Assembly: GCA_051531975.1 (NCBI GenBank)
Contig: JAOPTT010000009.1
Location: 288,001-352,000, forward strand
DNA: 64,000 nt
Direction of reading: 5' to 3'
Source: Spirochaetaceae bacterium
Lineage (GTDB): Bacteria > Spirochaetota > Spirochaetia > DSM-2461
Below are positions 20,283-42,933 of this stretch, piece by piece (positions within the stretch are counted from its first letter, which is position 1; every line of letters begins with the position of its first letter). The notes beneath the pieces are model-generated. The model ran no database searches and was not told the origin of the DNA. It saw only the letters and a list, made by a program, of their open reading frames with translations. Both the position numbers and the translations under genes were made by a program.

Positions 20283-22419
<2,137 letters not shown>

Positions 22420-22425
22420 TAACAG

Positions 22426-22467
22426 ACCCTGCTTTTGCAGGGGTTATTTTTTTATAAGTATATTATT
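22426..22467 (+). repeat. Left direct repeat / terminator hairpin of the outer insertion
   Basis: 38/42 identical to 42892-42933; first 17 bp (accctgcttttgcaggg) identical. Confidence 0.85.
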
Positions 22468-22595
22468 TATTCAATTTCATATCTAATAATATCTTCCACT
22501 TTTGGAACTGTGTTGTATGTCTTCACCCAATTACCATTTTGTTTGACTTCATATATTTTAAAAACAAATGGTATTCCTTTTGCAATAATAGTGTT
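22467..22595 (-). pseudogene. Detached C-terminal 42 codons of the M23 peptidase whose N-terminal part is at 41485-42024
   Basis: Reads NTIIAKGIPFVFKIYEVKQNGNWVKTYNTVPKVEDIIRYEIE*; joins in frame to ...HLHMQFMNSD when the inner elements are removed. Confidence 0.8.
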
Positions 22596-22711
22596 GGAAG
22601 GTCTTATTTCATTATTATTTAAAGCTATCAACTTTAGTTTTAAATGGGCTTAAATAGTGAAAAATTCCATAAACAAAATCAGTCCCGTGTGTTAAATTTG
22701 GAGATATTGTT
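22596..22711 (+). repeat. Conserved non-coding element end R1
   Basis: About 10 differences in 117 aligned positions versus 24605-24721; first 21 bp identical. Confidence 0.95.
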
Positions 22712-22779
22712 TTTAGGAAGCTTTAAATAATCAAATATGTTAGTGTTCTACTTTGTATGTAGCAGTATTATCAATTATG

Positions 22780-23991
22780 TTATTTAACTTCAAATCTTAT
22801 ATTTTCTAGAAGAAAATCATATAGATTTATATGTGTGATACCATCTTTTGATAGATCAATTTTATCCATGGTAATCAAATATTTTGGATATTGATCATTT
22901 ATTTTTAGAAGTGCATTCATCTCCCTTGCATATGTTCTTTCATCTAAAGCCGTCAGACTAACCTGAAAATATAATCTTTTATCTCCTTTAATAGCAATAA
23001 AATCTACCTCGGATGACATGTTTTTCCCAACAGTTACTTCATAACCTAATCGAAGTAACTGAAGATATACAATATTTTCTATAACATGTCCTAAATTACC
23101 ACTGCGATATCCTATGAGCCTGTTTCTAAGACCTGTATCAACGACATAGTATTTACCATTAGTTTTAAGACGTTCTTTTCCCCTAATATCATATCTCTCA
23201 CATTGATAAAGCATATGGGCATCACACATTAACTGTAGATAATTATCTACTGTGTCTGAGGTGATTTTATGTCCATGAGATATCATTGTATTTTTGATTG
23301 CATTGGCAGATGTATTATTACCAATATTTTCAAAAACAAACTTTGCTACTTTATAGAAAGCTCCTTCATCTCGAATCCTACCTCTTAGAATAATATCTCT
23401 AGTAAATATTGAATCAAATAATCCTGAAAGAATTGCCTCTACCAGTTCCTGCCCATTAGCTAAACTAACAGCGGGAAAAGATCCTACTAGAAGATACTCG
23501 TTAAAATGCTTCTCAACATTTTGTTCACTATATGATTTAAATTCTAAAAACTCTTTAAATGATAAGGGCAGAACTTTAATCTCTATATACCTACCTGAAA
23601 GATATGTAAGATGCTCCCCTGAAAACATTCTTGAATTTGAGCCAGTAACATATATATCAGCATTAAAACTTACTCTTAAACTATTAATAACTTTCGCCCA
23701 ATCATAGAGCTCTTGTACTTCATCAATTAGTAAATAGATTCTACTACTATCTTTCACTTTACCTTTTATGTAGTCATGTATGGATTTCTCATCTTTTAAA
23801 TCATCATTTAGATATTTTTCATAATTTATTTCAATGATCTGGCTTTCTTCTACACTCTGATCTATAAGATATTCTTTAAACAGAACAAGTAGAGATGATT
23901 TCCCTGATCGTCTAACACCAGTTATCACTTTAACAAAATCATTATCTTTATACTGAACCAGTTTATCTGTATATCTTGATCTCTTAATCAT
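22780..23991 (-). CDS. AAA+ ATPase with C-terminal DUF4143/restriction-endonuclease-like domain
   Basis: GVRRSGKS, LIDEVQ, TGSNS, LSGR, KYYVVDTGLR, IENIVY, EVDF..YFQV. Confidence 0.9.
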   Translation of the reverse strand: MIKRSRYTDKLVQYKDNDFVKVITGVRRSGKSSLLVLFKEYLIDQSVEESQIIEINYEKYLNDDLKDEKSIHDYIKGKVKDSSRIYLLIDEVQELYDWAKVINSLRVSFNADIYVTGSNSRMFSGEHLTYLSGRYIEIKVLPLSFKEFLEFKSYSEQNVEKHFNEYLLVGSFPAVSLANGQELVEAILSGLFDSIFTRDIILRGRIRDEGAFYKVAKFVFENIGNNTSANAIKNTMISHGHKITSDTVDNYLQLMCDAHMLYQCERYDIRGKERLKTNGKYYVVDTGLRNRLIGYRSGNLGHVIENIVYLQLLRLGYEVTVGKNMSSEVDFIAIKGDKRLYFQVSLTALDERTYAREMNALLKINDQYPKYLITMDKIDLSKDGITHINLYDFLLENIRFEVK

Positions 23992-24206
23992 AAGTACCTC
24001 ATTATTCTAACTATAACTTCAAAATCGACAGAAATCAATTATATTACGATCAGTAGTCGTAAAAAGAAATAGTATTGTCGTTTTTCATAGTAAAAACTAA
24101 GTATTTAATAATAAGATTAAGCAATGTTCAGGCCCAAATATATGGATATATTGCTGTAACAGTATAACAACAGAATTTTATTGGTTAAACATTTGATACT
24201 TAATGT

Positions 24207-24236
24207 TGATAATCCCTTACTTATAAGGAATTATCA
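24207..24236 (-). terminator. Hairpin downstream of ssb copy B
   Basis: tgataatccctta-ctta-taaggaattatca; conserved at 41088-41119. Confidence 0.75.
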
Positions 24237-24246
24237 TTATTAAAAG

Positions 24247-24598
24247 CTATACAGCTACGTCGATAACCTCTTCTTCTTTTACCACTACAGGAATTGGTTT
24301 AAACTCCACATGTTCAGCTACAACTTTTATCCTTGAATGAGGATTCTCAGATTCATCCACCCACCTGTCCTGTTTTAATCTTCCAACAACTCTAACACCT
24401 CTACCCTTGCAAAGATGTTTAAGGCAGCTCTCGGCTATTGTCGACCAAACTTCTATATCAAAGTAGGATACCTCTTTTACATAATCATCATCTTTCTTAT
24501 AACTTCTGTTAACAGCTATAGTAAAGTTACAGATAATAGTATCCTGGGGGGGTTCTTCTCTCTACAGGGTCTTTAACTAAATTTCCCTCTAACAACAT
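24247..24598 (-). pseudogene. ssb: Single-stranded DNA-binding protein, 5'-truncated and frameshifted (copy B)
   Basis: MLLEGNLVKDP...EVSYFDIEVW...KGRGVRVVGRLKQDRW...VAEHVEF; 352 nt versus 351 nt for copy A because of one extra base in a G7 run at 24546-24552. Confidence 0.92.
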
Positions 24599-24604
24599 AG
24601 AGTC

Positions 24605-24721
24605 GGAAGGTCTTATTTCATTATTTTTTAGAAGCTATCAAATTTAGTAAAAAATGGGCTTAAATAGTGAAAATTTCCATAAACAAAATCAGTCCCGTCT
24701 TTTTAATTTGGAGATATTGTT
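24605..24721 (+). repeat. Conserved non-coding element end R2
   Basis: Direct repeat of 22596-22711. Confidence 0.95.
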
Positions 24722-24973
24722 GCAATTTAAATATTATGCAATTGTCAGTCCCCAAACACTCCTACAAATAGTAGTTATTACAACATATTGATTATGAAAT
24801 ATTTTCATAAATAGATCTCCATATTATTTTTTATATATTAATTCAAAAAGGTGTATTTGATACGTCTGTACAGTTAGTAATATTTTACATTTTATTATTC
24901 CTGTTCCATATAATTAAAGAATCTATTGTGAATAACATATCATAAATATGTCCAGTAAACTGGTGGAATTCCG

Positions 24974-25866
24974 TTATATAAGTTTTTTCAACTCTTCTAT
25001 AGAAAAACCAGTGACTTTAGAAACAAAATCTAGTTCAGATCCTGCATTTAGAAGATTTCTAGCGATTTATTCCTTACCTTGATCTCTAGCATACTCCAAA
25101 GCTCACCTATCAGAAGCCACATCTTCTAAATATTTATTATATGCTCTCTGCTCTTTTGGAGTCATGGATATGTAGTCCAGCTTTTCACTCATCTCTTTTA
25201 TTCCCTTGGATTCAAATTCGTCCTCGACTCTGTGATTCTTTATGGAATAGATCCACTCATCTAAGGAGTCTTTTACCCTATTGTTAAAAATAGAGATGGA
25301 TATAACAAAGTACTCAGGAAAGATATTAATCTAATCTCTACTATTATTATAACCAACTAAGAAGTTACTGTCTATATTTATAGGTTCTCTACTGTGTAAT
25401 CTAGGCTGCATAGGCGAGCAGTAAACTTGTTTACGACCAGCTCAGAGAATTCTGTTTTACCATGATAGACATAATCTGAATGGGAATTACTACTTTTAGC
25501 TTCTACATCAAAATAGATTAGGCTTACAGAGTAGACTTTATTAACATAGGAATAATCCTCTCCAGATTTTATATTATCTGAAATATCCTTACTTGTTCCA
25601 AATAGTAACCTTTTAAAGTAGTTTTTTTCAGGAGCATACTGTATCTCTATTATCACATGTTCCCCTGAAGAGTTTTCTGCAATTAGATCTACCCTGTTAT
25701 ACTTAATATCCCGAGCATCCTGATTCCCCTCGCTCTCTAGAATATTAACAACTTTTATTTCTTCACCTAAAAGTGCTAATAAAAATCCTTCCAGTACTAC
25801 ATAGTTTACTTTATCCCTCAGGATATACTTTATTGCCCAATCAAAACTTACAATTTCTCTACTCAT
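24974..25866 (-). pseudogene. Rpn-family recombination-promoting nuclease / PD-(D/E)XK putative transposase, disrupted
   Basis: SFDWAIK, NRVD..IIEIQ; continues out of frame as NIFPEY..LDEWIY..IARNLL..VSKVTGFSIEEL with in-frame stops and frameshifts. Confidence 0.88.
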
Positions 25867-26059
25867 ACTAGGTTTATAGTGGTTCGTATCATATAAATTC
25901 AATTTAAAATCGATATATCTGGCTAAATTGATAACTAATTATATATCTTCAGAAAGCTGTATGTATGAAATTCAGTGCGTAATAATGGTTATTTGACTAA
26001 AGAACATTGGAATACTATTATACTGGATGGAACCCTGGAAGACGATCTTGTAAAAAGAC

Positions 26060-28489
26060 TTATTTAACGATTAACTCAATTTTTTTACCACAAAACACTA
26101 TTGTATTTTTAATTTTATTATTCATTACCACGTCTATTTTTATACTCATAGGCATTCCATTAAAGTCACCATTTCTATCATCAATTATTAAAGTACTACT
26201 TTTGTCATTCCATAAAATTCTGGTTATTGAATATCTATCTTTTTCATAATCATTACTCTTACCATCATCTTCATACATTAAAAATTCACCATCTGCATTT
26301 GGATAAATATGAATTTCATACCCTTCATTGGCCCTTTCATCTGCAAATTGGATTCCAGGTCTCATAGGAATTATTGATCCAGCTTTAATAAATATGGGCA
26401 TAACATCAATAGGTGTATCTACAACTAATTCGATTCCGCCTTTATAGTATTTATTTGTATAAAAATCATACCATCCACAACCTTCAGGAAGGTAGCAACT
26501 TATCTGCTTCTTAGTTGCTATTTCTACTCCACCAATGTCAAAATACATTGGTTTTGTTATTGGACAAACCATAATTGATTCACCCATCATAAATTGACTT
26601 TTTATAGTCCTGGCCTTTTCATCATGACTAAAATCAAATAGTAAGCTTCTCATTATGGTTTTATTAAAAAGTCTTACACTTCCGGCTATTGAATATATAT
26701 ATGGAATTAGTTTGTATCTGATATCTATGAATCTTTTAATAGAGTCATAAAACATATCTCCTTCCTCGCCAAAATTCCAAATTTCTCTTGGAGTATCAGT
26801 CCCGTGGGATCTAAACATAGGTAAAAAAGCACCCATTTGAATCCATCGCACATAAAGCTCACAATAGGCCGGATCGTCTATACCGTCTTCATAATCCCCT
26901 TTCCAAAACCAAAATTTATCAGAATTATCAGAACATTTACAACCTCTATTTCTCCAATTTTCTTTAACAACAAAGAAACCACCGATATCTAGAGTCCAAT
27001 ATGGATAACCTGAAAGTCCCATATTTAAACCTTCAACTATCTGTTTTTTCATGGTGTCATAGGTTGCAGTAATATCACCTGACCATAAAAAAGCTGAATA
27101 CTTTTGTGATGACGCATATCCGGAACGTGTTAGATTAACAACACGATTATTTTTAAAATCTTCAATTTGATTATTATATATACCCATTGAATGTACTAAT
27201 GGATATAAATTAGCCTGTTCACTTTTGAGATACTTTTTATGTTCTGTTCCAACAAGATAATATCTTTCCCGTGGCTTCCTTAATTGTGAACCGGTCCAGT
27301 CCGGACTACTAAATGGTTCTACAGAATCACACCACCATGAATCAAAACCTACATCGTATAACCCTTCTTTTGCCTGTTTCCAATATATTTTCCTAGCTTC
27401 TTTATCAAAAGCATCATACGTTGCATAATCAAATAATAGTTGGTCGTTTTTTATAAATTCATCATGATTTTCACAACCGGCGTTCATATTTGGCCAGATA
27501 GAAACCATGGTATGTGCATTCATTTTATGAATATTATCAATACACTCTTTTATATCCCCATAACGAGATTTATCAAGTATTTTATTCCCCCACTTACCAT
27601 CTTCCCAAGTATTCCAATCCTGTACTACACAATCTATAGGAACATTAAGCTCACGGTGTTTTGTAACAATATCTTCTAATTCTTTTGCAGAATAGTACTG
27701 TTCTTTTGATTGAATATAGCCAAAAACCCAACGTGGAAACATTGTAGCTTGACCTGTTAACTTTCTAAAACCATCAATTACATTATCTGGCTTTTCACCT
27801 GCAACAAAATAGTATTCCAAGTGTGGTATTGAATCACAAAACATATATGAATATGGTTTAGAATCATTAAAAATCATTAACGAGCCACAATCAAATAGCA
27901 TTCCATAGCCTGAATCAGATAAAAACATCGGCATTGGAATTCTCATATTATGTTGATATAAATACTGTGTTGTTCCTCTATAATTATATATACCCTCTTC
28001 ACCTTGTCCCAATCCATAAATACCCTCACCATCTTCAAACTCAAAATGAAGCTTTCCACTAAAAGCTTTATGTGTAATTTGTGGAATTAGGTTTCCTACA
28101 AAATTCCGTTCTCCATCTGGTGTTTTCACACGGTTTATAATTGGTTTATCACCGCCTGTGGAATATTCTAATATATCAATTTCATGTAATTCTCTCGATC
28201 CTTCTCTTAATAAACACTTACCATTTTCATCAAAATAACTAAGTTTTTTTGTATTCTTATTAAAAGAAACACTGAGTTCAGACATTTTAACAACAAGGTC
28301 AAATTCTGATTCAATAACATCAAAATCAACATTTATAAAACTATTATGATCAATAATTATGGATTCAGATTCACCAACTCTTTTTTTACTATATATAATT
28401 CGTATAATTTTTTTATTAACAGGTTGAACTTTTAAAATACCATGTTTCAAATAAATTGAAACTCCATTTTTTTCAACTTTATAATTCAT
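26060..28489 (-). CDS. GH31 glycoside hydrolase (alpha-xylosidase-like)
   Basis: YGLGQ, VVQDW, nucleophile region WWCDSVEP, WSGD, DIGGF, FRSHGTD. Confidence 0.92.
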   Translation of the reverse strand: MNYKVEKNGVSIYLKHGILKVQPVNKKIIRIIYSKKRVGESESIIIDHNSFINVDFDVIESEFDLVVKMSELSVSFNKNTKKLSYFDENGKCLLREGSRELHEIDILEYSTGGDKPIINRVKTPDGERNFVGNLIPQITHKAFSGKLHFEFEDGEGIYGLGQGEEGIYNYRGTTQYLYQHNMRIPMPMFLSDSGYGMLFDCGSLMIFNDSKPYSYMFCDSIPHLEYYFVAGEKPDNVIDGFRKLTGQATMFPRWVFGYIQSKEQYYSAKELEDIVTKHRELNVPIDCVVQDWNTWEDGKWGNKILDKSRYGDIKECIDNIHKMNAHTMVSIWPNMNAGCENHDEFIKNDQLLFDYATYDAFDKEARKIYWKQAKEGLYDVGFDSWWCDSVEPFSSPDWTGSQLRKPRERYYLVGTEHKKYLKSEQANLYPLVHSMGIYNNQIEDFKNNRVVNLTRSGYASSQKYSAFLWSGDITATYDTMKKQIVEGLNMGLSGYPYWTLDIGGFFVVKENWRNRGCKCSDNSDKFWFWKGDYEDGIDDPAYCELYVRWIQMGAFLPMFRSHGTDTPREIWNFGEEGDMFYDSIKRFIDIRYKLIPYIYSIAGSVRLFNKTIMRSLLFDFSHDEKARTIKSQFMMGESIMVCPITKPMYFDIGGVEIATKKQISCYLPEGCGWYDFYTNKYYKGGIELVVDTPIDVMPIFIKAGSIIPMRPGIQFADERANEGYEIHIYPNADGEFLMYEDDGKSNDYEKDRYSITRILWNDKSSTLIIDDRNGDFNGMPMSIKIDVVMNNKIKNTIVFCGKKIELIVK

Positions 28490-28536
28490 ATAATTAATCC
28501 CTTAATAACGACCTTATTCTTAATAATTAGTCTGTT

Positions 28537-28940
28537 TTATAAATCTTTCAAATATGGACTTCGATCTTCAACCAAAGTGAGCAAATTACTGACCTCTGAC
28601 CAACAGCTCCCATTGAACACACCACCAACACTACTTAATGTTTCCCAGGAGTATACCGGTCTTTCATCTGTAGACATATACTGGCTGATAGTCGAAGAAA
28701 TTTCCTTATACAGTTCAAGATACAAGACCTGCATCAACAAGGGCAGCGCTTGTTGATCCACCGACTCTAATATTTCCAGTTCCGGTATCTACAAACTGTC
28801 CGATTTGACCATACCGGCTGAATATATCTACAAACTCATCGACGCATTTTTTAGCTCCATAAATTCAAAATGTTTGAAGTGGGTAATAAAAACTAGAAAC
28901 TGCTTTTATATAAGGCTACAAGGTTAATTCCCAGTGACAT
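28537..28940 (-). pseudogene. Multiply deleted paralogue of the 33180-34964 gene
   Basis: Colinear blocks matching ~33200-33299, ~33400-33481 and ~33900-34032; probable RBS and ATG at 28940. Confidence 0.85.
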
Positions 28941-28959
28941 TATTTTCCTTATATAACCT

Positions 28960-30219
28960 CTATTTATCCCCGTTGAATTCTTTTACAGCATCTATAGCTG
29001 CAACAATGTTTTCAAGTGGGGTCTTTGCCTGTATATTATGTATGGCATTAAACACATAACCACCTTCTTTAGCAAATATTTCACATCTCTCCAGAACCTG
29101 GGTTCTAACCTGTTCAGGGGTTCCAAAAGGGAGAATGTTTTGTGTATCAACACCACCGCCCCAGAACACTACATCCTTTCCAAATTCACCTTTTAAAGCA
29201 TTTGCATCCATTCCTGTTGCAGACAGTTGTACGGGATTTAATATATCAAAGCCACTATCAATTAGATCCGGAACAAAAGATGCAATTGCCCCACAGCAGT
29301 GCTTAAAGGTTTTCCAGTTTGTATTGGCATGTATCCAGTCATTAATCTTTTTATAATGTGGTTTCCATAACTCCCTATATGTATCTATAGAACAGAATGT
29401 TCCATTTTGAGTTCCAAAATCTGTTCCACATACAAAAAATGCATCGATTTTATCACCAATTGCATTGTGAATCTTTTCGTAGTTTTTAATTCCAATTTCA
29501 GTCTGTTTTTCAAATAGTTCATAGATATATTCCGGTCTTAATGCTGTAGACATATACCACTCGGTTATATCCCTTATGCCTTTAGGGTTTTTTAACTGGG
29601 GTGCCGGCACACAGGCTATATCCCCCAATGATGTACCGGAGAAATTCCCAATTACACCTTTTCCTGTTGCAGAGGCTCTATCAGCTTCATTAATTAAAAA
29701 TTGTAAATCCTTATCACTTATAGGGCCGAACTCTTCAAGATTATCCTGAACATTCAGATTATCCTCATCAATTGGTTCCTGCCTGATTATCTCATCAAAA
29801 AAATGTCCACTTTTAGGCATTCTTCCACTTGGTCTGGCTGTTAAATCCCCCTGGGGATATAAAAGAGTATCCCCTTTATCATCTATTGTATAATTAAAAT
29901 CTTTTGAAACCAAAACTTTTAACCCATCATTCATAGTCCACTCTTTCCATGCTGTATTTGGAAAACCGAACCATGTATTTCTGGAATTTACTGCTGTAAC
30001 ATCAACACCTATAGCTTCCTGAAGATCCTCTTCCACTAATCCCAAACATTGATAAGGTTCGTAAACTTTTACAAGTTTTTTTTCCAGGCCATAATAATCC
30101 CTTAATTCTGCAACTATACTGGCATGAATACCTGTTACGGCAGTTCCTCCAAAGTCTATTGGAACTTTATCCGGTTGTTTATGGTTAAGACACGCTTGTA
30201 ATCTCTCTTTTGAATTCAC
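28960..30219 (-). CDS. Uroporphyrinogen decarboxylase/MtaA-CmuA superfamily protein
   Basis: GTDFGTQ, HCCG, LNPVQ, FWGGGVDTQ..PFGTPEQV, AIHNIQ. Confidence 0.88.
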   Translation of the reverse strand: MNSKERLQACLNHKQPDKVPIDFGGTAVTGIHASIVAELRDYYGLEKKLVKVYEPYQCLGLVEEDLQEAIGVDVTAVNSRNTWFGFPNTAWKEWTMNDGLKVLVSKDFNYTIDDKGDTLLYPQGDLTARPSGRMPKSGHFFDEIIRQEPIDEDNLNVQDNLEEFGPISDKDLQFLINEADRASATGKGVIGNFSGTSLGDIACVPAPQLKNPKGIRDITEWYMSTALRPEYIYELFEKQTEIGIKNYEKIHNAIGDKIDAFFVCGTDFGTQNGTFCSIDTYRELWKPHYKKINDWIHANTNWKTFKHCCGAIASFVPDLIDSGFDILNPVQLSATGMDANALKGEFGKDVVFWGGGVDTQNILPFGTPEQVRTQVLERCEIFAKEGGYVFNAIHNIQAKTPLENIVAAIDAVKEFNGDK

Positions 30220-30276
30220 TTTAATCTCCTTCTTATATTGTTAACATTTTGAAGTCACATCTATATTCTGCAGTCT

Positions 30277-33168: not shown

Positions 33169-33179
33169 ATAAATTCCCT

Positions 33180-34964: not shown

Positions 34965-35037
34965 GTTATTCTTCCTTTATTGATATAACTGAAATAATTC
35001 TTAAAAGAGGTTTCCCTCTTTTAAGGCTGTTAATTAC

Positions 35038-36573
35038 TTAATTTGAATAGAATGCATCGATCTGCTGCTGTGCCTCTTTTACAATAGCATCACCACCTGA
35101 TTTTCTAATTTTATCCAGAAACGTTTTTAATTCCGCTTCAGTATTCTCCAGGAAAATACCACACTCAAAAGCTGCGGAATATTCATCTATAATTGTACTT
35201 ACTGCGGACATTTCTGCTTTGACCGGATTTGAATCAAATGTAAATCCCAAAACAGAAGATGGGGTTGCAGAATCATTAAGTTCAGCTATAGCAGGACGCG
35301 TAAGTTTAGATTCGCCTTCCATTAAGTATGATTCCATATTTCCCGGTCCATATACCCATCTAACATCCGGATTATATCTATCAGTACCAACTTGAGTTTT
35401 TACAATAGTATTATCTCCAGCCATATTGTAATGAACACCTTCTATACCATAATTGATCAGGTTAAGAAAATCCTTATCACTGTAAAGAAGTTCAAAAAAC
35501 TGAATTGCTTTTTCAGGGTTTTTAGACGTCCGACTGATAGCAGTCAATGTTGCTGTTGATGAACTAGTCATAATAGTAGGATTATTAGGAGCTTTAAACA
35601 TCTCACTGTAGGTTCGGCTACCGTTGGATTCTGCAAGCGTAAGAGAGCCAGGGTGAGGATAGAAATTCCCATCCAACATCATTCCCACTTTACCTAAACC
35701 ATATAAATCACCTATGCCTGGCAATGCTATGGCATCTTCTTGTATATATCCTTTTTGCGCCCAATCAGCCATTAATAATACATAGTTCCTGAACTCATCG
35801 GATTTAAACTGATTCACTACTGTTCTAGTGTTATCTGCCAGTCTTACATAACCTGGAGCAGTCCTGCCTACAACATCATCAAATCCATTTGTCACCAACA
35901 ATTTATTCCAGTTAGCAAATCCAGGTTCACCACCGGCAGCTCCCCAGGCATAAACTTCCGGGTATTCACTTTTTACAAACTCAAGATAAGGTTCAAAATC
36001 TTTCAGACTACTGATTTTATTTATGTCAAAATCAATCTTTTCTATAGCTTTATCCATAATAGAAGCTGGAGCTCTCCACGCATTGGCCATATAGTTCATC
36101 TGCCAATTTAACATTCCATAAGTTTTCCCTTTAATTTTTGCTACATTTCTAAATTTCTGAGGTACAGTATCCGCGTATGCAGGTGCATATTTAGAAATTA
36201 AATCGTCTAGAGGTAAAAAAGCCCCTTTATCAACGTTTCCAGAGTAACTATTAGACCAGTTTCCAGTCCATGCCAAATCGTAAGGTTCTCCCGAAGCTGT
36301 AACCACCTGCATTTTTTGATCATAATCTCCCCATCCAATGTGAACAATTTTAAGCGTAGCTCCGATTTTTTCAGATAGAATAGAATTAATTTTATCCTCT
36401 ACAAGTCCCTGATCCAACTGCTCTCCGGGACCAATATGGTAGTACACCAATTCTACTAAATCGTCTTTTGTACTCTCAGTTTCACCACTAGCCCAACCCA
36501 TTGCCGGTAATAACAGAATTAATAACACTGCCAATACCATTTTGAAATTCATTCCTTCTTTGTTTTTAATCAC
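35038..36573 (-). CDS. Oligosaccharide ABC transporter substrate-binding protein (LplA/DUF3502-like)
   Basis: Signal peptide, SGEPYDL, NYGIEGVHY, LGFTFD; GGAGG RBS before GTG 36573. Confidence 0.9.
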   Translation of the reverse strand: MIKNKEGMNFKMVLAVLLILLLPAMGWASGETESTKDDLVELVYYHIGPGEQLDQGLVEDKINSILSEKIGATLKIVHIGWGDYDQKMQVVTASGEPYDLAWTGNWSNSYSGNVDKGAFLPLDDLISKYAPAYADTVPQKFRNVAKIKGKTYGMLNWQMNYMANAWRAPASIMDKAIEKIDFDINKISSLKDFEPYLEFVKSEYPEVYAWGAAGGEPGFANWNKLLVTNGFDDVVGRTAPGYVRLADNTRTVVNQFKSDEFRNYVLLMADWAQKGYIQEDAIALPGIGDLYGLGKVGMMLDGNFYPHPGSLTLAESNGSRTYSEMFKAPNNPTIMTSSSTATLTAISRTSKNPEKAIQFFELLYSDKDFLNLINYGIEGVHYNMAGDNTIVKTQVGTDRYNPDVRWVYGPGNMESYLMEGESKLTRPAIAELNDSATPSSVLGFTFDSNPVKAEMSAVSTIIDEYSAAFECGIFLENTEAELKTFLDKIRKSGGDAIVKEAQQQIDAFYSN

Positions 36574-36624
36574 AAAGTCCTCCAAATTAAATTATATTTT
36601 AACAGATTTTTACAAAATCTGTTA

Positions 36625-37539
36625 TTATCCTTTTACCGAGCCCATAGTTAATCCTTTAACAAAATATTTTTGAAAAAATGGAAATATAACTAACATAGGA
36701 GCCACTGCAGTAAGGCACATTGCCATACGGGCAGATTCTGTTGGGATACTGTCTGCTGATACAGAAGCACCCATCATGATCATTTTTTTAAGCGCATCAA
36801 TATTTGCCAACATACTTTGCAGCATGTGGGGTAACGTTATTAACATCCGGTCATCTATAAAGAGCATTCCAGTCCACCAGGTATCATTCCAGTATCGTAA
36901 AACCTGAAATAGTCCCAATGTTGCTATTGCAGGCTTGGAAAGAGGAATTACAAGAGAAAACAGTATTCTTATTTCCGATGCACCATCAATGTAAGCGGAT
37001 TCGGAAAGTTCCTTTGGTATCTGCTGAAAGAAGGTTTTTATAAGTAAGATATTAAATGCTTGAAGAGCATATGGAATGATATGCGCCCATATTGTATTTT
37101 TTAAATGCAGATAATTTACCATCAACATATATGTAGGTACTAATCCTCCGTTAAACAGCATTGTAAAGAATACAAAAAAAGAGAAAAAACGCCGGTATCG
37201 AAATGTAGGTAGGGATAGTGGATAAGCTATAAGTATGGATAGTATTAGGGAGATTACAGTACCTAAAACTGTTACAACCATAGAAACTATATAACTATCA
37301 ATTATCCGCTCTGGTGATTTAAATATATAACTAAAGGCTTCTAAATTAAATTGTCTTGGTATTATCTTATAGCCATGTTCATATATATAAGAATCTGATG
37401 AAAATGAGATTGAAATAACAGCTATTAACGGAATTATACATAACAGTGATATAGCTAGAAGTACTATATTCACAATCATCCTTGATAATGGTGATATACT
37501 ATTTAGTTTTCTTTTTTGGTTTACTTTAAAATAACGCAC
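36625..37539 (-). CDS. Carbohydrate ABC permease (LplC-like)
   Basis: FNGGLVPTY, ESAYIDGAS (EAA loop), FQKYFVKGLT. Confidence 0.93.
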   Translation of the reverse strand: MRYFKVNQKRKLNSISPLSRMIVNIVLLAISLLCIIPLIAVISISFSSDSYIYEHGYKIIPRQFNLEAFSYIFKSPERIIDSYIVSMVVTVLGTVISLILSILIAYPLSLPTFRYRRFFSFFVFFTMLFNGGLVPTYMLMVNYLHLKNTIWAHIIPYALQAFNILLIKTFFQQIPKELSESAYIDGASEIRILFSLVIPLSKPAIATLGLFQVLRYWNDTWWTGMLFIDDRMLITLPHMLQSMLANIDALKKMIMMGASVSADSIPTESARMAMCLTAVAPMLVIFPFFQKYFVKGLTMGSVKG

Positions 37540-38443
37540 TGTCTTTCTCCCATTTATTAACTACACCATTAGCTATCAGAATCGTTATAAGTCCGACAAT
37601 AGACTGATATAAACCAGCAGCTGTTGCCATTCCTAAATCTCCGGTAACTTTTAAAGAACGATAAACATATGTGTCCATGACATCAGTCGTCTTATACAAT
37701 ATTCCAAGATTTCTGGGCACATTATAGAAAAGACCAAAGTCAGCATAAAATATGCGGCCAATACTGAGTAAAACCATAATAGTAATAAGAGGGCGTATGT
37801 GTGGTAAAGAGATGTATATTGTTTGCTTCCATCGACCTACACCATCAATTGCAGCAGCTTCATAAAGTTGTTTGTCTACCGATATAAGTCCGGCGTAAAA
37901 GATAATGCACCAGTAGCCTATGTTTTTCCAGGTATTAAAAAAGATAAGAATCATTGGCCAGGATTTTGGATTTGTGTACCAGTTTACAGAATCGATATTA
38001 AAAAACAGTAATAACTGATTTAAAATTCCATAACGGGAACTTAAAAAACTATAAGCCATATAACTGACAACTACCCATGAGATATAGTATGGAAGAAACA
38101 AAGCTGTCTGATAAAATTTAATTGCTTTTTTACTAATTACTTCATTTAGTAATAAAGCCAGTGCCACACCACCTACTGTATTGCATATAATAAACAAAAC
38201 ATTATATCCAATAGTGTTTCGGGTAATTCTTAAGGCTGTATCTGTTTTGAAAAAGAATTCAAAGTTTTTGAATCCTACCCAGGGGCTTTTCAAAAATCCC
38301 AGATCGTAACGAAAATCCTTAAATGCCAGAAAAATACCAGCCATTGGTAGATAGTTATATACCAACATAACTGTGAATGGAATAATAAGGATTAAGAGTA
38401 ATTGTTTGTCTTGGGCTCTCCCAATTAGTTTTTTCTTATTCAT
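37526..38443 (-). CDS. Carbohydrate ABC permease (LplB-like)
   Basis: SPWVGFKNF, YEAAAIDG, DVMDTYVY. Confidence 0.93.
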   Translation of the reverse strand: MNKKKLIGRAQDKQLLLILIIPFTVMLVYNYLPMAGIFLAFKDFRYDLGFLKSPWVGFKNFEFFFKTDTALRITRNTIGYNVLFIICNTVGGVALALLLNEVISKKAIKFYQTALFLPYYISWVVVSYMAYSFLSSRYGILNQLLLFFNIDSVNWYTNPKSWPMILIFFNTWKNIGYWCIIFYAGLISVDKQLYEAAAIDGVGRWKQTIYISLPHIRPLITIMVLLSIGRIFYADFGLFYNVPRNLGILYKTTDVMDTYVYRSLKVTGDLGMATAAGLYQSIVGLITILIANGVVNKWEKDSALF

Positions 38444-38609
38444 GTAATAATTGTATGGCTGGCAAACTTAAACGGACAAGAGCCAAAATGCAGTGTTTTA
38501 TGTCAAAAAACTCATAATGTAAAAGTTTAAAAGTATCAAAAAGCAAAGATGCAGGATAATAATTAAAGATTCTCTTTGCCTGCAGTATTTCTTGATCTAT
38601 GATTAAAAT

Positions 38610-40892
38610 ATGCCTGTAAGAAATCAAAGTTATATGTTTAAACTCTTTTTCTCATTTGTGAGTCTAGTGACATTTATAGTACTTGTTAATTCTATTACTC
38701 AACTATTTCTATCAATAACAGAAGCAGAAAAAATAATGCATAATGCTGAACAACATAAAATGGAATTGATAAGTTACAGTGTTGACTATATGAATCAATC
38801 CACCAGGACTCTTATTCAAAATATGTTTTCAGATAATAATGTAAAGTTTTTACTGTCAACCAATGACCATGATTATTTAAAAGTACATAATTTTTTCAAG
38901 AATACTAAAAAAATTATAGCCAGCAGCCCCGAAGTACATTCTATATATCTATATAACTCAGTTCTTGATAACTACTATTCTACAACAAAGGATTTTTCCA
39001 GTACATCTGAAGATTTTTTTGATGAAGAAATTAATACATATATGAATCCTGGGAACACAATATTTTTAAAACCAATTTTCCGCAGACTCGCTGGTGGATT
39101 AGAAGTTTACTCATACATTTTATATGTTGATGTTTTTGAAAATATTAAATCCAGTGCAATTATTATAAATATTAAAGCTGATTATATAAAAAATATTATA
39201 GGTGGAATGCACTCAACCCTCTCATTAAATACTAAAATAATAATGACTAATAAAGAAGGTTATTTAATGGGGCCTGGAGAGAAATTGGAAGATATCACAT
39301 TTATAAAAAGGATTTTGGAAAGTAATAAAAAAAAGTCATACTTTATTGACACTTATCAGAATAAAAAAACATTAATAAGTTATATTTTAAAAGAAGATAC
39401 GGAATGGTTTTTTATATCACTGACCCCCTATAAGAGCATCACCGACTCTTTTAAAGTATTAAAAGTATTAATTTCACTTTCAGGGTTATTAATCCTTATT
39501 ATTGGTACTTTTTTTTCTGCACTTCTGGCAAAAAAGTTATATCTTCCATTAAAGGTTATTACAGAAACAGTAAGTGCTATAACTGGAAAAAATAGGTCAG
39601 GAAAAGATGAATTCACTTTAATAAAAGAGACCCTATCCGATTCTACAGCAAGGGCTGCACTTTTTGATTCATATAAACAAAAAAATAGCCAAACTCTTCA
39701 GACAGAGCTAATGAGAAAGCTTTTGAATCATACTGTGTCTGTTTCCGATGAAGTTATTAAGAAATGGGATGATTTAGAAATAGAGCTTGATTCCGAAAAA
39801 CCTTTTCATTTAATTCTAATTAATATAGATGATTTTTATGATCTTTCTTATAAACTAAGTTTTAATGATATGAACCTGTTATGGTTTTCTATAAATTCCC
39901 GATTTAGACAGGATCTAAGTTTCGATTTTAAATCACTATTTGTAAATATGAATGAAAGAGTATCCTGTATTATCGTCCAGAACAATAGTGAACCAAATAA
40001 CGGTGTTGAGGTTAAGTTAAGAAAGTTCCTCTCACTAATTCAAAATAAAATTTCAGAGGAGTTAGGTGTATCCATTACCATTACTATTTCAGATATTGGT
40101 CAAAGTTTATTATCACTGCCAAAGCTTTATTCTGAAACTTTGAATATGGCTGAATATCGATTATTAATAGGGCAGGGAAGCATAATAGAAAAAAAAGATA
40201 AAACTTTACAGACAACAGGATATCGTTTCCCTATTGAAGAGATACATAATTTAAATAAATTTATAAAAAACAGAGACTTTATTAATGCAAAAAAATCATA
40301 TTTATATATTGAAGAGAAATTAATAAATAATGAACCTTTTCAAATCCGTGTCGATTTAATACGTGTGATATCTTCTCTGTTTGATACAATTAAAACTTTG
40401 GAAATAAACAGCATTCTGGAATTTAATCTGGATTTCCCACAATTTATTGATGACTTAAACCGTCTGGATACAATGGGTCAAATTAGAAGCCTGTTTAATA
40501 ACTTTTTTGATAATATTGAGAATAAGTTTAATATTATTAAATTATCTAAAGTGGATGAGAATGTTGAAAAGATAAAAAAAATAATTGAACATGAATATTC
40601 AGATAAAGAGTTATCTACAAAAAGCATAGCTGACAAATTAAACATGTCTACCGGGTATATACGTCAACTATTTAAAGAATTTATGGGTGTTTCTATTTCA
40701 GAATATATTTTCTCAATAAGATTAGAAAAATCAGCAGAACTTATATCTATGCATAAACAATCATTTAAAGATGCAATGTACAGTGTTGGAGGGGATAATT
40801 ACCGGTATTTCTTAAGACGTTTTAAGGAGTATTTCGGACTGACTCCTAATGAATATCTTAAAAAAAATAATCAGGAATTTGTAGATAGATGA
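38610..40892 (+). CDS. Membrane-anchored AraC-family regulator (YesS-like)
   Basis: Two TM segments around a sensor domain, C-terminal AraC HTH; divergent from the ABC operon. Confidence 0.85.
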   Translation: MPVRNQSYMFKLFFSFVSLVTFIVLVNSITQLFLSITEAEKIMHNAEQHKMELISYSVDYMNQSTRTLIQNMFSDNNVKFLLSTNDHDYLKVHNFFKNTKKIIASSPEVHSIYLYNSVLDNYYSTTKDFSSTSEDFFDEEINTYMNPGNTIFLKPIFRRLAGGLEVYSYILYVDVFENIKSSAIIINIKADYIKNIIGGMHSTLSLNTKIIMTNKEGYLMGPGEKLEDITFIKRILESNKKKSYFIDTYQNKKTLISYILKEDTEWFFISLTPYKSITDSFKVLKVLISLSGLLILIIGTFFSALLAKKLYLPLKVITETVSAITGKNRSGKDEFTLIKETLSDSTARAALFDSYKQKNSQTLQTELMRKLLNHTVSVSDEVIKKWDDLEIELDSEKPFHLILINIDDFYDLSYKLSFNDMNLLWFSINSRFRQDLSFDFKSLFVNMNERVSCIIVQNNSEPNNGVEVKLRKFLSLIQNKISEELGVSITITISDIGQSLLSLPKLYSETLNMAEYRLLIGQGSIIEKKDKTLQTTGYRFPIEEIHNLNKFIKNRDFINAKKSYLYIEEKLINNEPFQIRVDLIRVISSLFDTIKTLEINSILEFNLDFPQFIDDLNRLDTMGQIRSLFNNFFDNIENKFNIIKLSKVDENVEKIKKIIEHEYSDKELSTKSIADKLNMSTGYIRQLFKEFMGVSISEYIFSIRLEKSAELISMHKQSFKDAMYSVGGDNYRYFLRRFKEYFGLTPNEYLKKNNQEFVDR

Positions 40893-41087
40893 ATCTCCGA
40901 ACTGACAATAAATTACCGCCAAAAAATATTTCAGTAATTTCATATTCTTTTAACATACCGATTCTGTATGTATGCTACTTCTAAAATCATTGCTTAATCT
41001 AATCGAGTTCACTCTCTCTTATCTCATCAACAGGAATTAAATTATTGCAAAGATTGTACTAATCTGACAAGAAAATCAGACTTGAAA

Positions 41088-41119
41088 TTGATAATCCCTT
41101 ACATATAAGGAATTATCAA
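41088..41119 (-). terminator. Hairpin downstream of ssb copy A
   Basis: ttgataatccctta-cata-taaggaattatcaa. Confidence 0.75.
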
Positions 41120-41127
41120 TTTAAAAA

Positions 41128-41478
41128 TTATACTGCTACGTCGAGAACCTCTTCCTCTTTTACAGTATTTGCTAAGGTTTTAAACTCCACATGTTCCGTA
41201 ACTACTTTTATCCTAGAGTGTGGATTCTCGATTTCATCTACCCACCTATCCTGTTTAAGCCTTCCAACAACTCTAAACCCTCTACCCTTACAAAGATGTT
41301 TAAGACAACTTTCAGCTATTGTGGACCAGACTTCTATATTAAAGTAGGATACCTCTTTTACATAATAATCATCTTTTTTATAACTTCTGTTAAAAGCAAT
41401 TGTGAAATTACAGATAATTGTATCCTGGGGAGTTCTTCTCTCTACAGGGTCTTTAACTAAATTTCCCTCTAACAACAT
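41128..41478 (-). pseudogene. ssb: Single-stranded DNA-binding protein, 5'-truncated (copy A), in frame with the upstream M23 fragment
   Basis: OB-fold SSB motifs; about 50 differences in 351 nt versus copy B; no RBS of its own. Confidence 0.85.
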
Positions 41479-42024
41479 ATCGTTATCACTATTCATAAAT
41501 TGCATATGCAAATGTGGCATTGTTGAATTCCCCGAATGCCCTAACTGTCCTATTGCATCATGTACTTTTATCTGCTGCCCAACTTTTACATTTACAGAAC
41601 CTTTTCTTAAGTGTTCTAATAATGCATATAGATTTTCTTGCACCTTTATCATTACATAATTACCGGTTACTAATTCTGGTGGTATACTATTTTTCATAAA
41701 ACCTTTGGTAACTTTTATGGTATTGATGAGATCTTTAAATATATTTACAGGATTCCTTTCGTTATTATCATTTTCTATGCGAATAACTTCACCATTAACT
41801 GGAGAATAAATGGTTTGGCCCCATCCATAGAAATCATCTAATTCCAATCCTTTTATTAAATACTGGAAGAAACTTTTACGATATGGCTTTTTGTTATTTT
41901 GTATCATCGCGAAGTCTATCGCATATTCTTCGCCAAACTTTGATGTCCCATGACTTGGAACTTTTGATCCAGGTGTGTTTGGTGATATATAAATCCCTTG
42001 TAAGGGAAAAGAAACAATGAGCAT
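41128..42024 (-). CDS. Chimeric ORF: M23 peptidase N-terminal 180 aa fused to SSB (298 aa)
   Basis: PNTPG..VPSHGT, YAIDF, GNYV, EHL, GHSGNSTMPHLH, then MLLEGNLVKDP; likely start ATG 42024. Confidence 0.8.
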   Translation of the reverse strand: MLIVSFPLQGIYISPNTPGSKVPSHGTSKFGEEYAIDFAMIQNNKKPYRKSFFQYLIKGLELDDFYGWGQTIYSPVNGEVIRIENDNNERNPVNIFKDLINTIKVTKGFMKNSIPPELVTGNYVMIKVQENLYALLEHLRKGSVNVKVGQQIKVHDAIGQLGHSGNSTMPHLHMQFMNSDNDMLLEGNLVKDPVERRTPQDTIICNFTIAFNRSYKKDDYYVKEVSYFNIEVWSTIAESCLKHLCKGRGFRVVGRLKQDRWVDEIENPHSRIKVVTEHVEFKTLANTVKEEEVLDVAV

Positions 42025-42184
42025 ATTTATACCTATATCCTTTTCATCTGATAATACTTTACTATATTTAAGATCTCTGCAGTAAGAACACAGTATTTCG
42101 TAGTTTGTTGAGTTTTTTGTCATTGTACACTTGTATTAGAAAACACGTTAACTTCATTACTTTATAAACAAGAGAGGAACAAAT

Positions 42185-42787: not shown

Positions 42788-42891
42788 ATACTGGACTATT
42801 CTTTAAGGGATCGGTACTTTTCATGTACAACATCACATAACACTCTATCTCTAGTAGAAAGTAGAATACGAGGATAACTTATAAAAAACTA

Positions 42892-42933
42892 ACCCTGCTT
42901 TTGCAGGGTCTATTATTTTATAAGTAAATTATT
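42892..42933 (+). repeat. Right direct repeat / terminator hairpin, overlapping the purA 3' end
   Basis: 38/42 identical to 22426-22467. Confidence 0.85.

Follow-up and report, generated by a model that had tools for sequence, protein, structure and literature searches.

The window, the whole stretch of 64,000 nt analysed here, holds two tandem non-autonomous integrative elements, A of 2.0 kb and B of 16.9 kb, lodged in an M23 peptidase gene. We consider it fairly probable that they are islands without a recombinase, headed by a truncated ssb gene and inserted at sites resembling the start of ssb, and that the spacers at their junctions are the variable middle of the joining site.

Layout of the two elements

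Each element consists of an ssb paralog without its first six codons (ssb'), followed by cargo and by a conserved non-coding end of approximately 125 bp, which on the ssb coding strand closes in AAATAAGACCTTCC followed by NNNN and CT. On that strand, the minus strand of the window, the order is M23-5' / ssb'B–cargo B–end B / ssb'A–cargo A–end A / M23-3'. The features are as follows.

22467..22590, minus: 3' part of the M23 gene, approximately 41 open codons (IIAKGIPFVFKIYEV...YEIE), with the stop at 22464-22466
22588..22595, minus: junction 8-mer AACACTAT from the end of A to the M23 3' part, containing gtgtt (22591-22595)
22596..22725, minus: L-end of A, conserved and non-coding (repeat comparison)
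22780..23991, minus: cargo of A, an AAA_14 and DUF4143 ATPase of 403 aa (Pfam)
24241..24598, minus: ssb'A, a pseudogene at the right end of A, 86% identical to ssb'B (alignment and translation)
24597..24604, minus: middle junction 8-mer GACTCTAT, containing gagtc (24600-24604)
24605..24725, minus: L-end of B, conserved and non-coding, with the closing motif given above
24726..41081, minus: cargo of B, a glycan-use cluster without a recombinase (ORF list and Pfam), comprising the next eight entries
25378-25902, minus: PDDEXK_2 fragment (Pfam)
26060-28489, minus: GH31 (Pfam)
28960-30219, minus: URO-D-like ORF (Pfam)
30277-33168, minus: beta-helix/F5_F8 type C protein (Pfam)
33180-34964, minus: GH127-like ORF (Pfam)
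35038-36585, minus: ABC sugar-binding protein (Pfam)
36625-38443, minus: two ABC-permease-like ORFs (by eye, outside the Pfam set)
38610-40892, plus: AraC-HTH regulator (Pfam)
41082..41125, no strand: palindrome with 20-bp arms directly downstream of ssb'B (comparison of inverted and direct repeats)
41128..41478, minus: ssb'B, an intact paralog without its first six codons, at the right end of B (Pfam SSB, 1.3e-20; TIGR00621)
41477..41484, minus: right junction 8-mer AACGATAT from the M23 5' part to ssb'B, containing tcgtt (41480-41484)
41480..42123, minus: 5' part of the M23 gene, 213 aa, with the spacer tcgtt (Pfam)

The ssb'B gene starts at the ATG that corresponds to codon 7 of the native genes, and the M23 5' part runs into it in frame, forming a chimeric ORF of 331 aa (41128-42123) with Peptidase_M23 at residues 152-213 and SSB at residues 214-314 according to Pfam. 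The ssb'A gene is frameshifted by an extra C inside the C-run after codon 17. The right ends of the two elements were 98% alike at their tips (24547-24599 and 41427-41479) and 87% alike further inside (24298-24549 and 41179-41430), and the left ends were 89% alike (22615-22711 and 24625-24721). The L-end of B, which had no significant fold and no Rfam family, shared 91% identity with the end of A and 88% with that of a third copy on another contig (C1) of this genome. The palindrome is kept in all three copies, its counterpart in element A lying at 24198-24245, and 36 nt of the palindrome region match the intergenic region at the native ssb locus of a relative (G021), where the same ssb–ATPase order is found and similarity to element A is 84% over 1859 nt. 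From its sequence, the palindrome looks like a terminator-like hairpin of the ssb' gene. An Rfam search of 22000-42500 gave one sub-threshold miRNA-type match and nothing else, and a scan of 22400-25400 for promoters and terminators stayed at shuffle level except for a hairpin in the flank at 22427-22442.

For the order of A and B we depend on the original assembly, and an identical tip of 48 nt is common to both right ends. Public unitigs begin 30 nt ahead of both the middle and the right junction; an arrangement with A alone in the M23 gene and B as a circle thus stays compatible with the unitigs. One sequencing run contains the flank and is the likely source; its contigs, compared with 22300-41800, included neither a joint of 22590 to 41485 nor a circle joint, a result that is uninformative on excision because contigs drop rare forms. 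A single joint in these contigs that appeared to go back was rejected as arising from the repeated flank hairpin.

The third copy lies at C1:218163-220323 and has the same ends, another cargo and another host gene; its cargo comprises ORFs of 72 and 140 aa that were judged HicA/HicB-like by eye only. A matching junction, AAATAAGCCCTTCC followed by AATACT and ssb' from codon 7, was found in a genome of another genus (G005, C141:882-915), in which another ssb copy is followed, 8.7 kb further downstream, by a pseudogene copy. The middle L-end/ssb' junction of the window and this foreign junction share the form that would be expected of attP. These three copies and one foreign junction are the whole evidence base, from which the exact exchange point is not fixable. 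The end motif was present in 2 of 38 family genomes, without an adjoining integrase, and the 136-nt end used as a DNA query matched none of 37 family relatives. Samples of 401 class-level and 401 phylum-level genomes, each including the present one, gave no true match to the end and junction motifs, the only queries used there, which an integrase-bearing relative with other ends would escape. Exact searches with the end 17-mer in genome_contigs returned 72 matches, about the chance number by our own reckoning and none with wider end or ssb similarity, and a 20-mer search of metagenome_contigs gave three chance matches.

Target genes and ssb paralogs

An intact ortholog of the interrupted M23 gene (G011:C2) is 68% identical to it, and the C-terminus of this ortholog could be aligned with the M23 3' part. 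The two M23 halves joined through one junction 8-mer gave an in-frame gene equal in length to the intact ortholog; the insertion was therefore conservative, with target bases neither gained nor lost. The rejoined product has ten residues between HLHMQF and GIPF, as has the ortholog; MNSDND is the M23 gene's own sequence, and the ortholog has MDTDDF at that place. One codon of the rejoined gene may be read as D or T, and the ortholog is too distant to decide between them.

The targets are the M23 gene in the window and a CPBP-like gene on contig C1. Both look like the beginning of the native ssb coding sequence, with ATGAATA 18 nt before the junction and AT at the junction. When the rebuilt empty sites were compared in fixed register with the native ssb 36-mer, the first 36 nt of that paralog in the family, the M23 site agreed at 20/36 positions and the C1 site at 17-18/36, the genome-wide chance of such likeness being 6-9e-4 and 0.5-1.8e-2, respectively. 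The CPBP-like target had no close ortholog in 37 relatives, and hence no empty site was readable for it. The native ssb sites of this genome, on contigs C2 and C6, are unoccupied.

The motif (M/V)NxLNS precedes the break point at 29/29 native loci of relatives and, among the 120 best public proteins, in 118. Of the public proteins, P0020 has an N-terminus resembling the element end in its reading, P0099 begins at codon 7, and P0001 is full-length with 87% identity. The ssb' copies of the elements form a group of their own, 86-89% alike among themselves and 71-76% to the natives, and two of them are disabled, ssb'A by its frameshift and the C1 copy by a stop. A search for longer fusions returned three proteins, namely the chimera of the window, an ORF whose IS-type transposase domain continues as a truncated ssb, and a further long ORF call.

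Junction sequences

The original prediction described three different 5-bp spacers in place of a target-site duplication. Direct reading of the sequence confirmed the strings gtgtt, gagtc and tcgtt at the positions listed above, in the contexts aataata[gtgtt]ggaag, caacata[gagtc]ggaag and caacata[tcgtt]atcac; they all differ, no target-site duplication is present, and the strings are junctions of site-specific insertions. The "ata" said to precede each spacer held at the three junctions of the window but not at the right junction of the C1 copy, caacatt[gtaat], leaving only "at" common to the 5/5 junctions of the window and the C1 copy. The length of 5 bp was a boundary drawn by eye, because at 3/3 left-end junctions "a" follows "at" and "g" is the first spacer base; the bases that vary beside ggaagg number four (tgtt, agtc and tagt). 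A variable stretch of 4-6 bp was seen at 5/5 junctions, and the 5-mers fall within an 8-bp crossover region of the form NNNN-CT-AT. Three related insertions, not chance, account for this pattern.

The 8-mers at the two ends of the M23 insertion were identical at 6 of 8 positions, as were those at the two ends of the C1 copy. Ends that are alike but non-identical are the expected product of recombination between non-identical cores, which supports this part of the original prediction. Neither element of the window contains a tyrosine integrase or any other recombinase. The comparison with a further copy, which had been suggested as a check, yielded similar rather than identical ends. On the ssb coding strand, the hexamers at the L-end junctions were AACACT, GACTCT and ACTACT in this genome and AATACT in G005. 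CT closes the hexamer at 4/4 conserved-end junctions and is followed by AT, but by GT in G005, and the hexamers read like codons 5-6 of ssb (NT, DS, TT and NT, versus NS in the natives). Such mutual similarity and likeness to ssb codons are unexpected for records of arbitrary earlier sites, and the proposal that the spacers record previous insertions is not supported by them. Directly beside the four variable bases, the terminal 17 nt of the conserved end were identical in 3/3 copies. The variable bases themselves agreed in 4/12 pairwise comparisons, whereas the third positions of ssb' codons are approximately 73% identical (chance approximately 0.02 by our own arithmetic), a low agreement that leans towards turnover as a coupling-sequence model predicts.

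Search for a recombinase

Pfam detected no recombinase family in the nine larger ORFs of A and B, a set exclusive of the permease-like ORFs at 36625-38443, and no integrase was found in or adjoining any copy, the C1 copy comprising two small ORFs that were read by eye. Six recombinases were found in the genome, none with a site matching the junctions. Four genes exceeded the Pfam cut-off for Phage_integrase: two on contig C17, 2.5 kb apart in Xer-like contexts, an IntI gene on C8 (386 bits against a cut-off of 265), and an integrase gene beside ssrA on C6; the genome also has two small serine recombinases. All four tyrosine recombinases are otherwise explained, and neither a trio of adjacent tyrosine recombinases nor an IS110-type or Y1 transposase was found in the genome. 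IntI exceeded the cut-off in 24/38 family genomes and relatives of the ssrA-side integrase occurred in 19/38; the presence of these enzymes thus does not track the elements. Among 54 ORFs flanking native ssb at the loci of 27 relatives, together with the 254-aa neighbour on C2, Pfam found no recombinase except one truncated integrase fragment, in G019.

Proposed mechanism and alternative explanations

Considering these results, we propose that a site-specific recombinase supplied in trans would dock circles, normally at the 5' end of an ssb paralog. The promoter already in place, together with the first six codons, would pass to the incoming ssb', while the displaced ssb' copy would fall silent and then decay, with which the pseudogene state of both ssb'A and the downstream copy in G005 fits. 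The 5-bp spacers would be unconstrained inner bases of a crossover region of approximately 8 bp, with strand exchange effectively in the shared AT and each spacer belonging to the left partner, that is, AACGA to M23, GACTC to the end of B and AACAC to the end of A. We regard an exchange within this AT as the simplest reading: both datable insertions show a pattern that fits it, with the hexamer staying with the left partner, and a coupling sequence is then unnecessary. The likeness of the hexamers to codons 5-6 of ssb would be explained equally well if the strands had been exchanged at the hexamer's left edge. A tyrosine recombinase is the probable enzyme, and it may be tolerant of mismatches in the crossover region. 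A more speculative extension, which we hold only tentatively, is a cassette-like system in marine spirochetes, in which circles without a recombinase would stack at the 5' end of ssb, or at sites that look like it, through an enzyme that acts in trans and is possibly encoded by the host; each arrival would gain the promoter and six initial codons, and the ssb' before it would decay.

A heterology-tolerant tyrosine recombinase of the Tn916/CTnDOT/GInt type, cutting 6-8 bp apart and leaving some spacers as records of an earlier flank, is a possible explanation but a clearly less probable one. It would account for 8-mers that, in each of the two datable insertions, are alike except at 2 of 8 positions, and for inner bases more variable than the third codon positions of ssb'; moreover, GInts often lie at ssb, finish in a short AT-rich 3' region and alter their att through 6-nt staggered cuts (PMC5385486). 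However, the genome offers neither an integrase with any copy nor the trio, and the similarity among L-end hexamers extends to another genus. Furthermore, the consensus-like hexamer lies on the conserved-end side in both datable insertions, which exchange in the AT predicts, whereas a random split of a heteroduplex would predict it with a chance of only one half per event.

That an enzyme of the host moves the elements, either the C8 integron integrase acting on odd cassettes or XerC/D acting on IMEX-like elements, seems improbable to us. The junction region was unfolded (z = 0.65 and −0.76), the attC repeats of this genome are hairpin-type sites of approximately 108 nt with GTTAT cores, the G/TT exchange point is absent at the M23 3' junction and in G005, and elements occur in only 2 of the 38 genomes of a family in which IntI is common. 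The best dif-like site (C5:299916), obtained with a degenerate consensus, has only TATGTT in common with the junction, which by eye is without such a left arm. In favour of a host enzyme are the presence of IntI and two Xer-like genes in the genome and the occurrence of elements without a recombinase, in tandem at a promoter-proximal site and with a promoterless first ORF. Least credible of all is a DDE transposon, for which the spacers or 8-mers would be decayed target-site duplications or AT a 2-bp duplication. An 8-bp duplication would also predict that a single 8-mer restores the M23 frame, and AT flanks every element, but mismatches occupy 2-3 of the 8 positions of the 8-mers, which adjoin 17 invariant end nucleotides and halves of a host gene that are still open. 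A decayed target duplication is very unlikely. Terminal inverted repeats are lacking beyond a weak GA(G/A)GG match, the elements contain no transposase, the genome search gave none of the IS110 or Y1 type, and the imitation of one 36-nt site by both targets is a recombinase-like specificity.

If the preferred reading, islands headed by truncated ssb at ssb-start-like sites, is true, a 17-kb glycan-use cluster, a putative toxin–antitoxin pair recognized by eye and an ATPase gene have each moved as a module that needs only a 125-bp end and a truncated ssb of its own, a cheap way of shuffling large gene sets among marine spirochetes. A conserved gene start would then serve as a landing pad, the gene being restored by the incoming element. 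The L-end/ssb' junction and the ssb start provide a concrete pair of sites for fishing out the recombinase. On the narrower point raised by the original prediction, the case shows that an insertion can have different bases at its two ends without these being coupling sequences.

Comparison with known systems

According to Bardaji et al. (2017, PMC5385486), GInts are site-specific genomic islands with three integrases and 2.5-70 kb of cargo, defined by a ginABCD operon at the 5' end that encodes three tyrosine recombinases and a small protein. Several unrelated GInts sit at the end or the beginning of ssb; their flanking repeats are imperfect, and their attachment site shifts by a few bases on excision, changing in approximately half of excisions through 6-nt staggered cuts (PMC5385486). 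The present elements resemble GInts in their variable cargo, the AT-rich conserved end of 125 bp, the ssb-start-like targets and the G005 junction that abuts ssb', but differ in having no ginABCD or any integrase, a truncated ssb as the 5' end, and repeats of only approximately 8 bp. A full-text literature search returned no report of ssb-capped elements without a recombinase, which is not proof of absence.

Elements of the CTnDOT, NBU1 and Tn916 type carry genes for an integrase and for excision proteins, and arbitrary former flanks are the source of their coupling sequences. The elements of the window share with them the absence of a target duplication, a variable stretch by the conserved end and tolerance of non-identical cores, but they have no integrase, and their variable bases are alike and resemble codons 5-6 of ssb. 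Cis-mobilizable elements (CIMEs), which are recombinase-less DNA between att sites of an integrative family, stack in tandem through site-specific recombination, as in tandem accretion beside ICEs, and depend on a helper. The conserved ends in three copies, the absence of a recombinase and the tandem array are CIME-like, whereas no cognate autonomous element was found in the genome, the four junctions seen have no adjoining integrase, and insertion takes place at a gene's 5' end, the element bringing a replacement for the body of that gene. IMEX elements use XerC/D at dif, with an attP in which XerC and XerD arms surround a centre of 6-7 bp as in the host dif; they too have no recombinase of their own, form tandem arrays and tolerate a central mismatch, but the junctions described here do not resemble dif, and what the targets imitate is the ssb start. 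Integron cassettes are similar in being promoterless units with a site that enter next to a resident promoter and form arrays with silent older units, the enzyme being encoded elsewhere. The attC site of such cassettes forms an imperfect hairpin with R''/R' boxes. The present units differ in having no attC hairpin and no G/TT exchange point, in reaching 17 kb with regulators of their own, and in each repeating the same ssb'. The cassette-like reading, if true, would thus represent an integron-like logic, so far undescribed, that operates on different sites and perhaps through a different enzyme.

Two tandem elements in an M23 peptidase gene

Three 5-bp spacers, gtgtt (22591-22595), gagtc (24600-24604) and tcgtt (41480-41484), lie exactly where the original prediction placed them, each preceded by 'ata', and ggaaggtcttatttcat directly follows the first two of the three. 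A repeat finder recognized left-end repeats at 22588-22711 and 24597-24721 (89-91% alike) and right-end repeats at 24198-24599 and 41080-41479 (85-98% alike, piecewise), and these two repeat classes thus delimit two tandem units, elements A and B. The right-end repeat is a minus-strand ssb gene (Pfam SSB, 1.3e-20; TIGR00621) without its first six codons, here called ssb'; the opposite terminus is a non-coding conserved end.

Features of the tandem elements and the interrupted gene
22467-22590, remainder of the M23 gene, 19 kb distant from the 5' part, no internal stop
22596-24599, element A, 2.0 kb, with left- and right-end repeats
24598, minus strand, ATG of ssb'A (the copy in element A), +1 frameshift after codon 17
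24605-41479, element B, 16.9 kb, with left- and right-end repeats
41478, minus strand, ATG of ssb'B (the copy in element B), intact
41128-42123, minus strand, chimeric ORF of 331 aa, Peptidase_M23 at residues 152-213 and SSB at residues 214-314 (Pfam)

Because the M23 gene is fused to ssb in the chimera and its remaining part lies 19 kb off, the parts run M23-5' / ssb'B-cargo B-end B / ssb'A-cargo A-end A / M23-3' when read along the ssb coding strand (window minus). Cargo A encodes an AAA_14/DUF4143 ATPase (Pfam), and cargo B is a glycan-use cluster with GH31, URO-D-like, beta-helix/F5_F8 and GH127-like proteins, an ABC binding protein and an AraC-type regulator, together with two ABC-permease-like ORFs (read by eye) and a PDDEXK_2 protein fragment. 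None of the nine scanned ORFs of elements A and B matched a recombinase family in Pfam.

Within element B, 3' pieces of the 594-aa GH127-like gene (33204-34037) recur downstream of the URO-D-like gene (28552-28864, 80-91% alike) and look like the leftover fragment of a paralog. At a native ssb locus of the same-genus genome G021 (L040, C1:2645500-2647400), an AAA_14/DUF4143 ATPase gene also follows ssb; the locus is 84% alike to element A over 1859 nt, the ssb part alone just 76%, and no conserved end follows the ATPase there.

The flank was found in one public sequencing run, which is probably the source of the assembly. Among the run contigs placed on 22300-41800, one piece spans 22300-24429, across the left junction, and the pieces with the middle and right junctions start 30 nt before them, the contigs breaking there because the two right ends do not differ over their last 48 nt. 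Each junction sequence was present at flank depth (41-46). The linkage of A to B rests on the original assembly; the run contigs also permit a resolution with A alone in the M23 gene and B as a circle. The sole joint that 'goes back' in the contig placement is caused by a terminator-like hairpin (86% alike) that separates convergent genes on either outer side of the interrupted M23 locus (22418-22467 and 42884-42933).

Further copies and relatives

In the source genome, G000 (5.46 Mb, 29 contigs), a CPBP-like membrane protease gene on C1 is interrupted by a third copy (C1:218163-220323). Its ends are 84-88% alike to those of A and B, its cargo differs from theirs (two small ORFs, by eye a HicA/HicB-like pair), and its ssb' has one stop and one frameshift. 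Its two junctions are tttcata[gtagt]ggaagg and caacatt[gtaat]agc. All five junctions thus share no more than 'at', and in the three that involve a conserved end, 'at' and 'ag' are followed by four variable bases. Some 85 nt ahead of the junction, the CPBP-like gene (G000:C1:218040-218160) additionally requires a change of frame, and would be either twice broken or affected by a sequencing error.

At the DNA level, the 136-nt conserved end was matched in none of 37 relatives from the family. One more terminal motif joined to ssb' was found in G005, a relative of another genus, as AAATAAGCCCTTCC + AATACT + GTAATTCTCGAGGG, where the ssb' is a pseudogene and another copy of ssb lies 8.7 kb upstream of it. 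Pattern searches at class level and at phylum level, over 401 genomes apiece (G000 counted in both), gave no further true junctions, and two collection scans for the element end gave chance matches only. Of the top 120 public relatives of ssb'B, 118 begin (M/V)NxLNS; the first residue of the public protein P0099 corresponds to codon 7. Another, P0020, has the N-terminus MFYELRVSST, similar to the ssb-frame translation of the element end ((N/Y)EIRPS.. for G000, EISPSNT for G005), and its protein sequence probably reflects one further junction in a public metagenome.

Other 5'-truncated ssb remnants, L046 (G006:C210), L047 (G005:C141, copy 1) and L042 (G021:C1:274554), have differing break points at about codons 12, 24 and 45. 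One such remnant adjoins, at a contig end, what we guess by eye, from its likeness to IS66-type ends, to be a transposase C-terminus.

Target site and nature of the spacers

An ssb paralog of this type is present in 38/38 family genomes, and at 29/29 relatives' loci the native product starts (M/V)NxLNS, then (I/V/M)(I/L)(L/V)EGN. The element copies begin precisely at codon 7 of the native gene, and ATGAATA stands 18 nt upstream of the junction in both recipient host sites, as in the native gene. In fixed register, the rebuilt empty sites matched the native 36-mer at 20/36 (M23) and 17-18/36 (C1) positions, scores reached by fractions of 6-9e-4 and 0.5-1.8e-2, respectively, of 10.9 million positions genome-wide. 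The intact M23 ortholog of the relative G011 reads HLHMQF-MDTDDFKIAR-GIPF, and the G000 counterpart HLHMQF-MNSDN(D/T)IIAK-GIPF, the interval being ten residues both in G011 and in G000 keeping one junction 8-mer. Since the intact G011 gene reads alike, the resemblance to the ssb start is a property of the host genes. The insertions were thus conservative and site-specific, and landed at ssb-start look-alikes.

Junction 8-mers on the ssb coding strand
M23-5' / ssb'B: AACGATAT
end B / ssb'A: GACTCTAT
end A / M23-3': AACACTAT
C1 copy: ATTACAAT, ACTACTAT
G005: AATACTGT

A decayed target duplication is very unlikely, because the 8-mers differ at 2-3/8 positions beside a conserved end whose last 17 nt are identical in 3/3 copies, and the host gene halves remain open. 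Two readings remain, both compatible with the three copies and one foreign junction. Exchange may occur within the shared AT, in which case the hexamer would be part of the left partner; in favour of this reading, the conserved-end hexamers AACACT, GACTCT, ACTACT and AATACT are mutually similar and 4/4 end in CT, including the one from another genus, whereas the host-side hexamers AACGAT and ATTACA (n=2) are without the terminal CT. The second reading, in line with the original prediction, has staggered cuts flanking 6-8 bp with mismatches tolerated. Consistent with such cuts, both ends of each insertion match at 6/8 positions, like partner-site cores; the four inner bases agree in just 4/12 pairwise comparisons, ssb' third codon positions are 71-76% identical, and by our own arithmetic the chance of zero conserved columns among four neutral ones is about 0.02. 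The hexamers also resemble ssb codons 5-6 (NT, DS, TT and NT versus native NS), consistent with a homology requirement in the overlap region, and that of G005 is one base off the native AATTCT of that genome. The least supported part of the staggered-cut model is that the spacers record arbitrary earlier sites. Site-specific insertion with non-identical cores and no duplication was thus borne out, but not coupling sequences carried over from earlier sites.

Search for the recombinase

G000 encodes two Xer-like genes in housekeeping contexts, two serine recombinases of about 198 aa, an integron integrase (IntI) on C8 and, on C6, an integrase next to the gene for tmRNA; no IS110-type transposase above cut-off, Y1 transposase or large-serine-recombinase domain was found in this genome. 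The integron integrase (C8:31741-32976, minus strand; TIGR02249, 386 bits versus a cut-off of 265) is followed by cassettes with its own ~108-nt attC-like repeats with GTTAT cores (C8:~34575-34680 and ~37195-37300, outside the window). At C6:591850-593457, also outside the window, a 374-aa integrase directly follows the tmRNA gene; about 40 kb downstream (C6:626000-634000) lie mobile-element-type genes (ArdC-, ParB- and RadC-like by eye) with a full-length ssb paralog, and a similar gene set occurs in G021.

The junction shows no attC-like fold (z = 0.65 and -0.76), the G|TT point is missing at two junctions, and only TATGTT is in common with the best dif-like site. The latter, a 28-nt near-palindrome recovered on both strands (C5:299916-299943, outside the window), is the best candidate for the chromosomal dif. 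IntI is above cut-off in 24/38 genomes of the family and the integrase next to ssrA has relatives in 19/38, and therefore neither tracks the two element-bearing genomes. The helper enzyme may be absent from G000. In G019, of another genus, a truncated tyrosine recombinase (L030, C324; 171 aa, Phage_int_SAM_4 and Phage_integrase) precedes the native ssb paralog by about 340 nt.

Comparison with known systems

Considering these results, the feature is a non-autonomous, site-specific integrative element, inserted at ssb-start look-alikes and stacked in tandem. A helper encoded by the host, or a wide distribution, would make it more significant. A tandem, recombinase-less state like that of A and B is known from cis-mobilizable and IMEX elements, and integrons likewise stack units promoter-proximally while older ones decay. 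No account of elements with a 5'-truncated ssb as their cap turned up in a limited search of the full-text literature. The nearest described system is the GInts, which are defined by ginABCD (PMC5385486), missing from A and B. These islands vary in cargo, have a short AT-rich 3' end and imperfect flanking repeats, and frequently insert at the end or beginning of an ssb gene; staggered cuts of 6 nt rewrite their attachment site in roughly half the circles that were recovered (PMC5385486).
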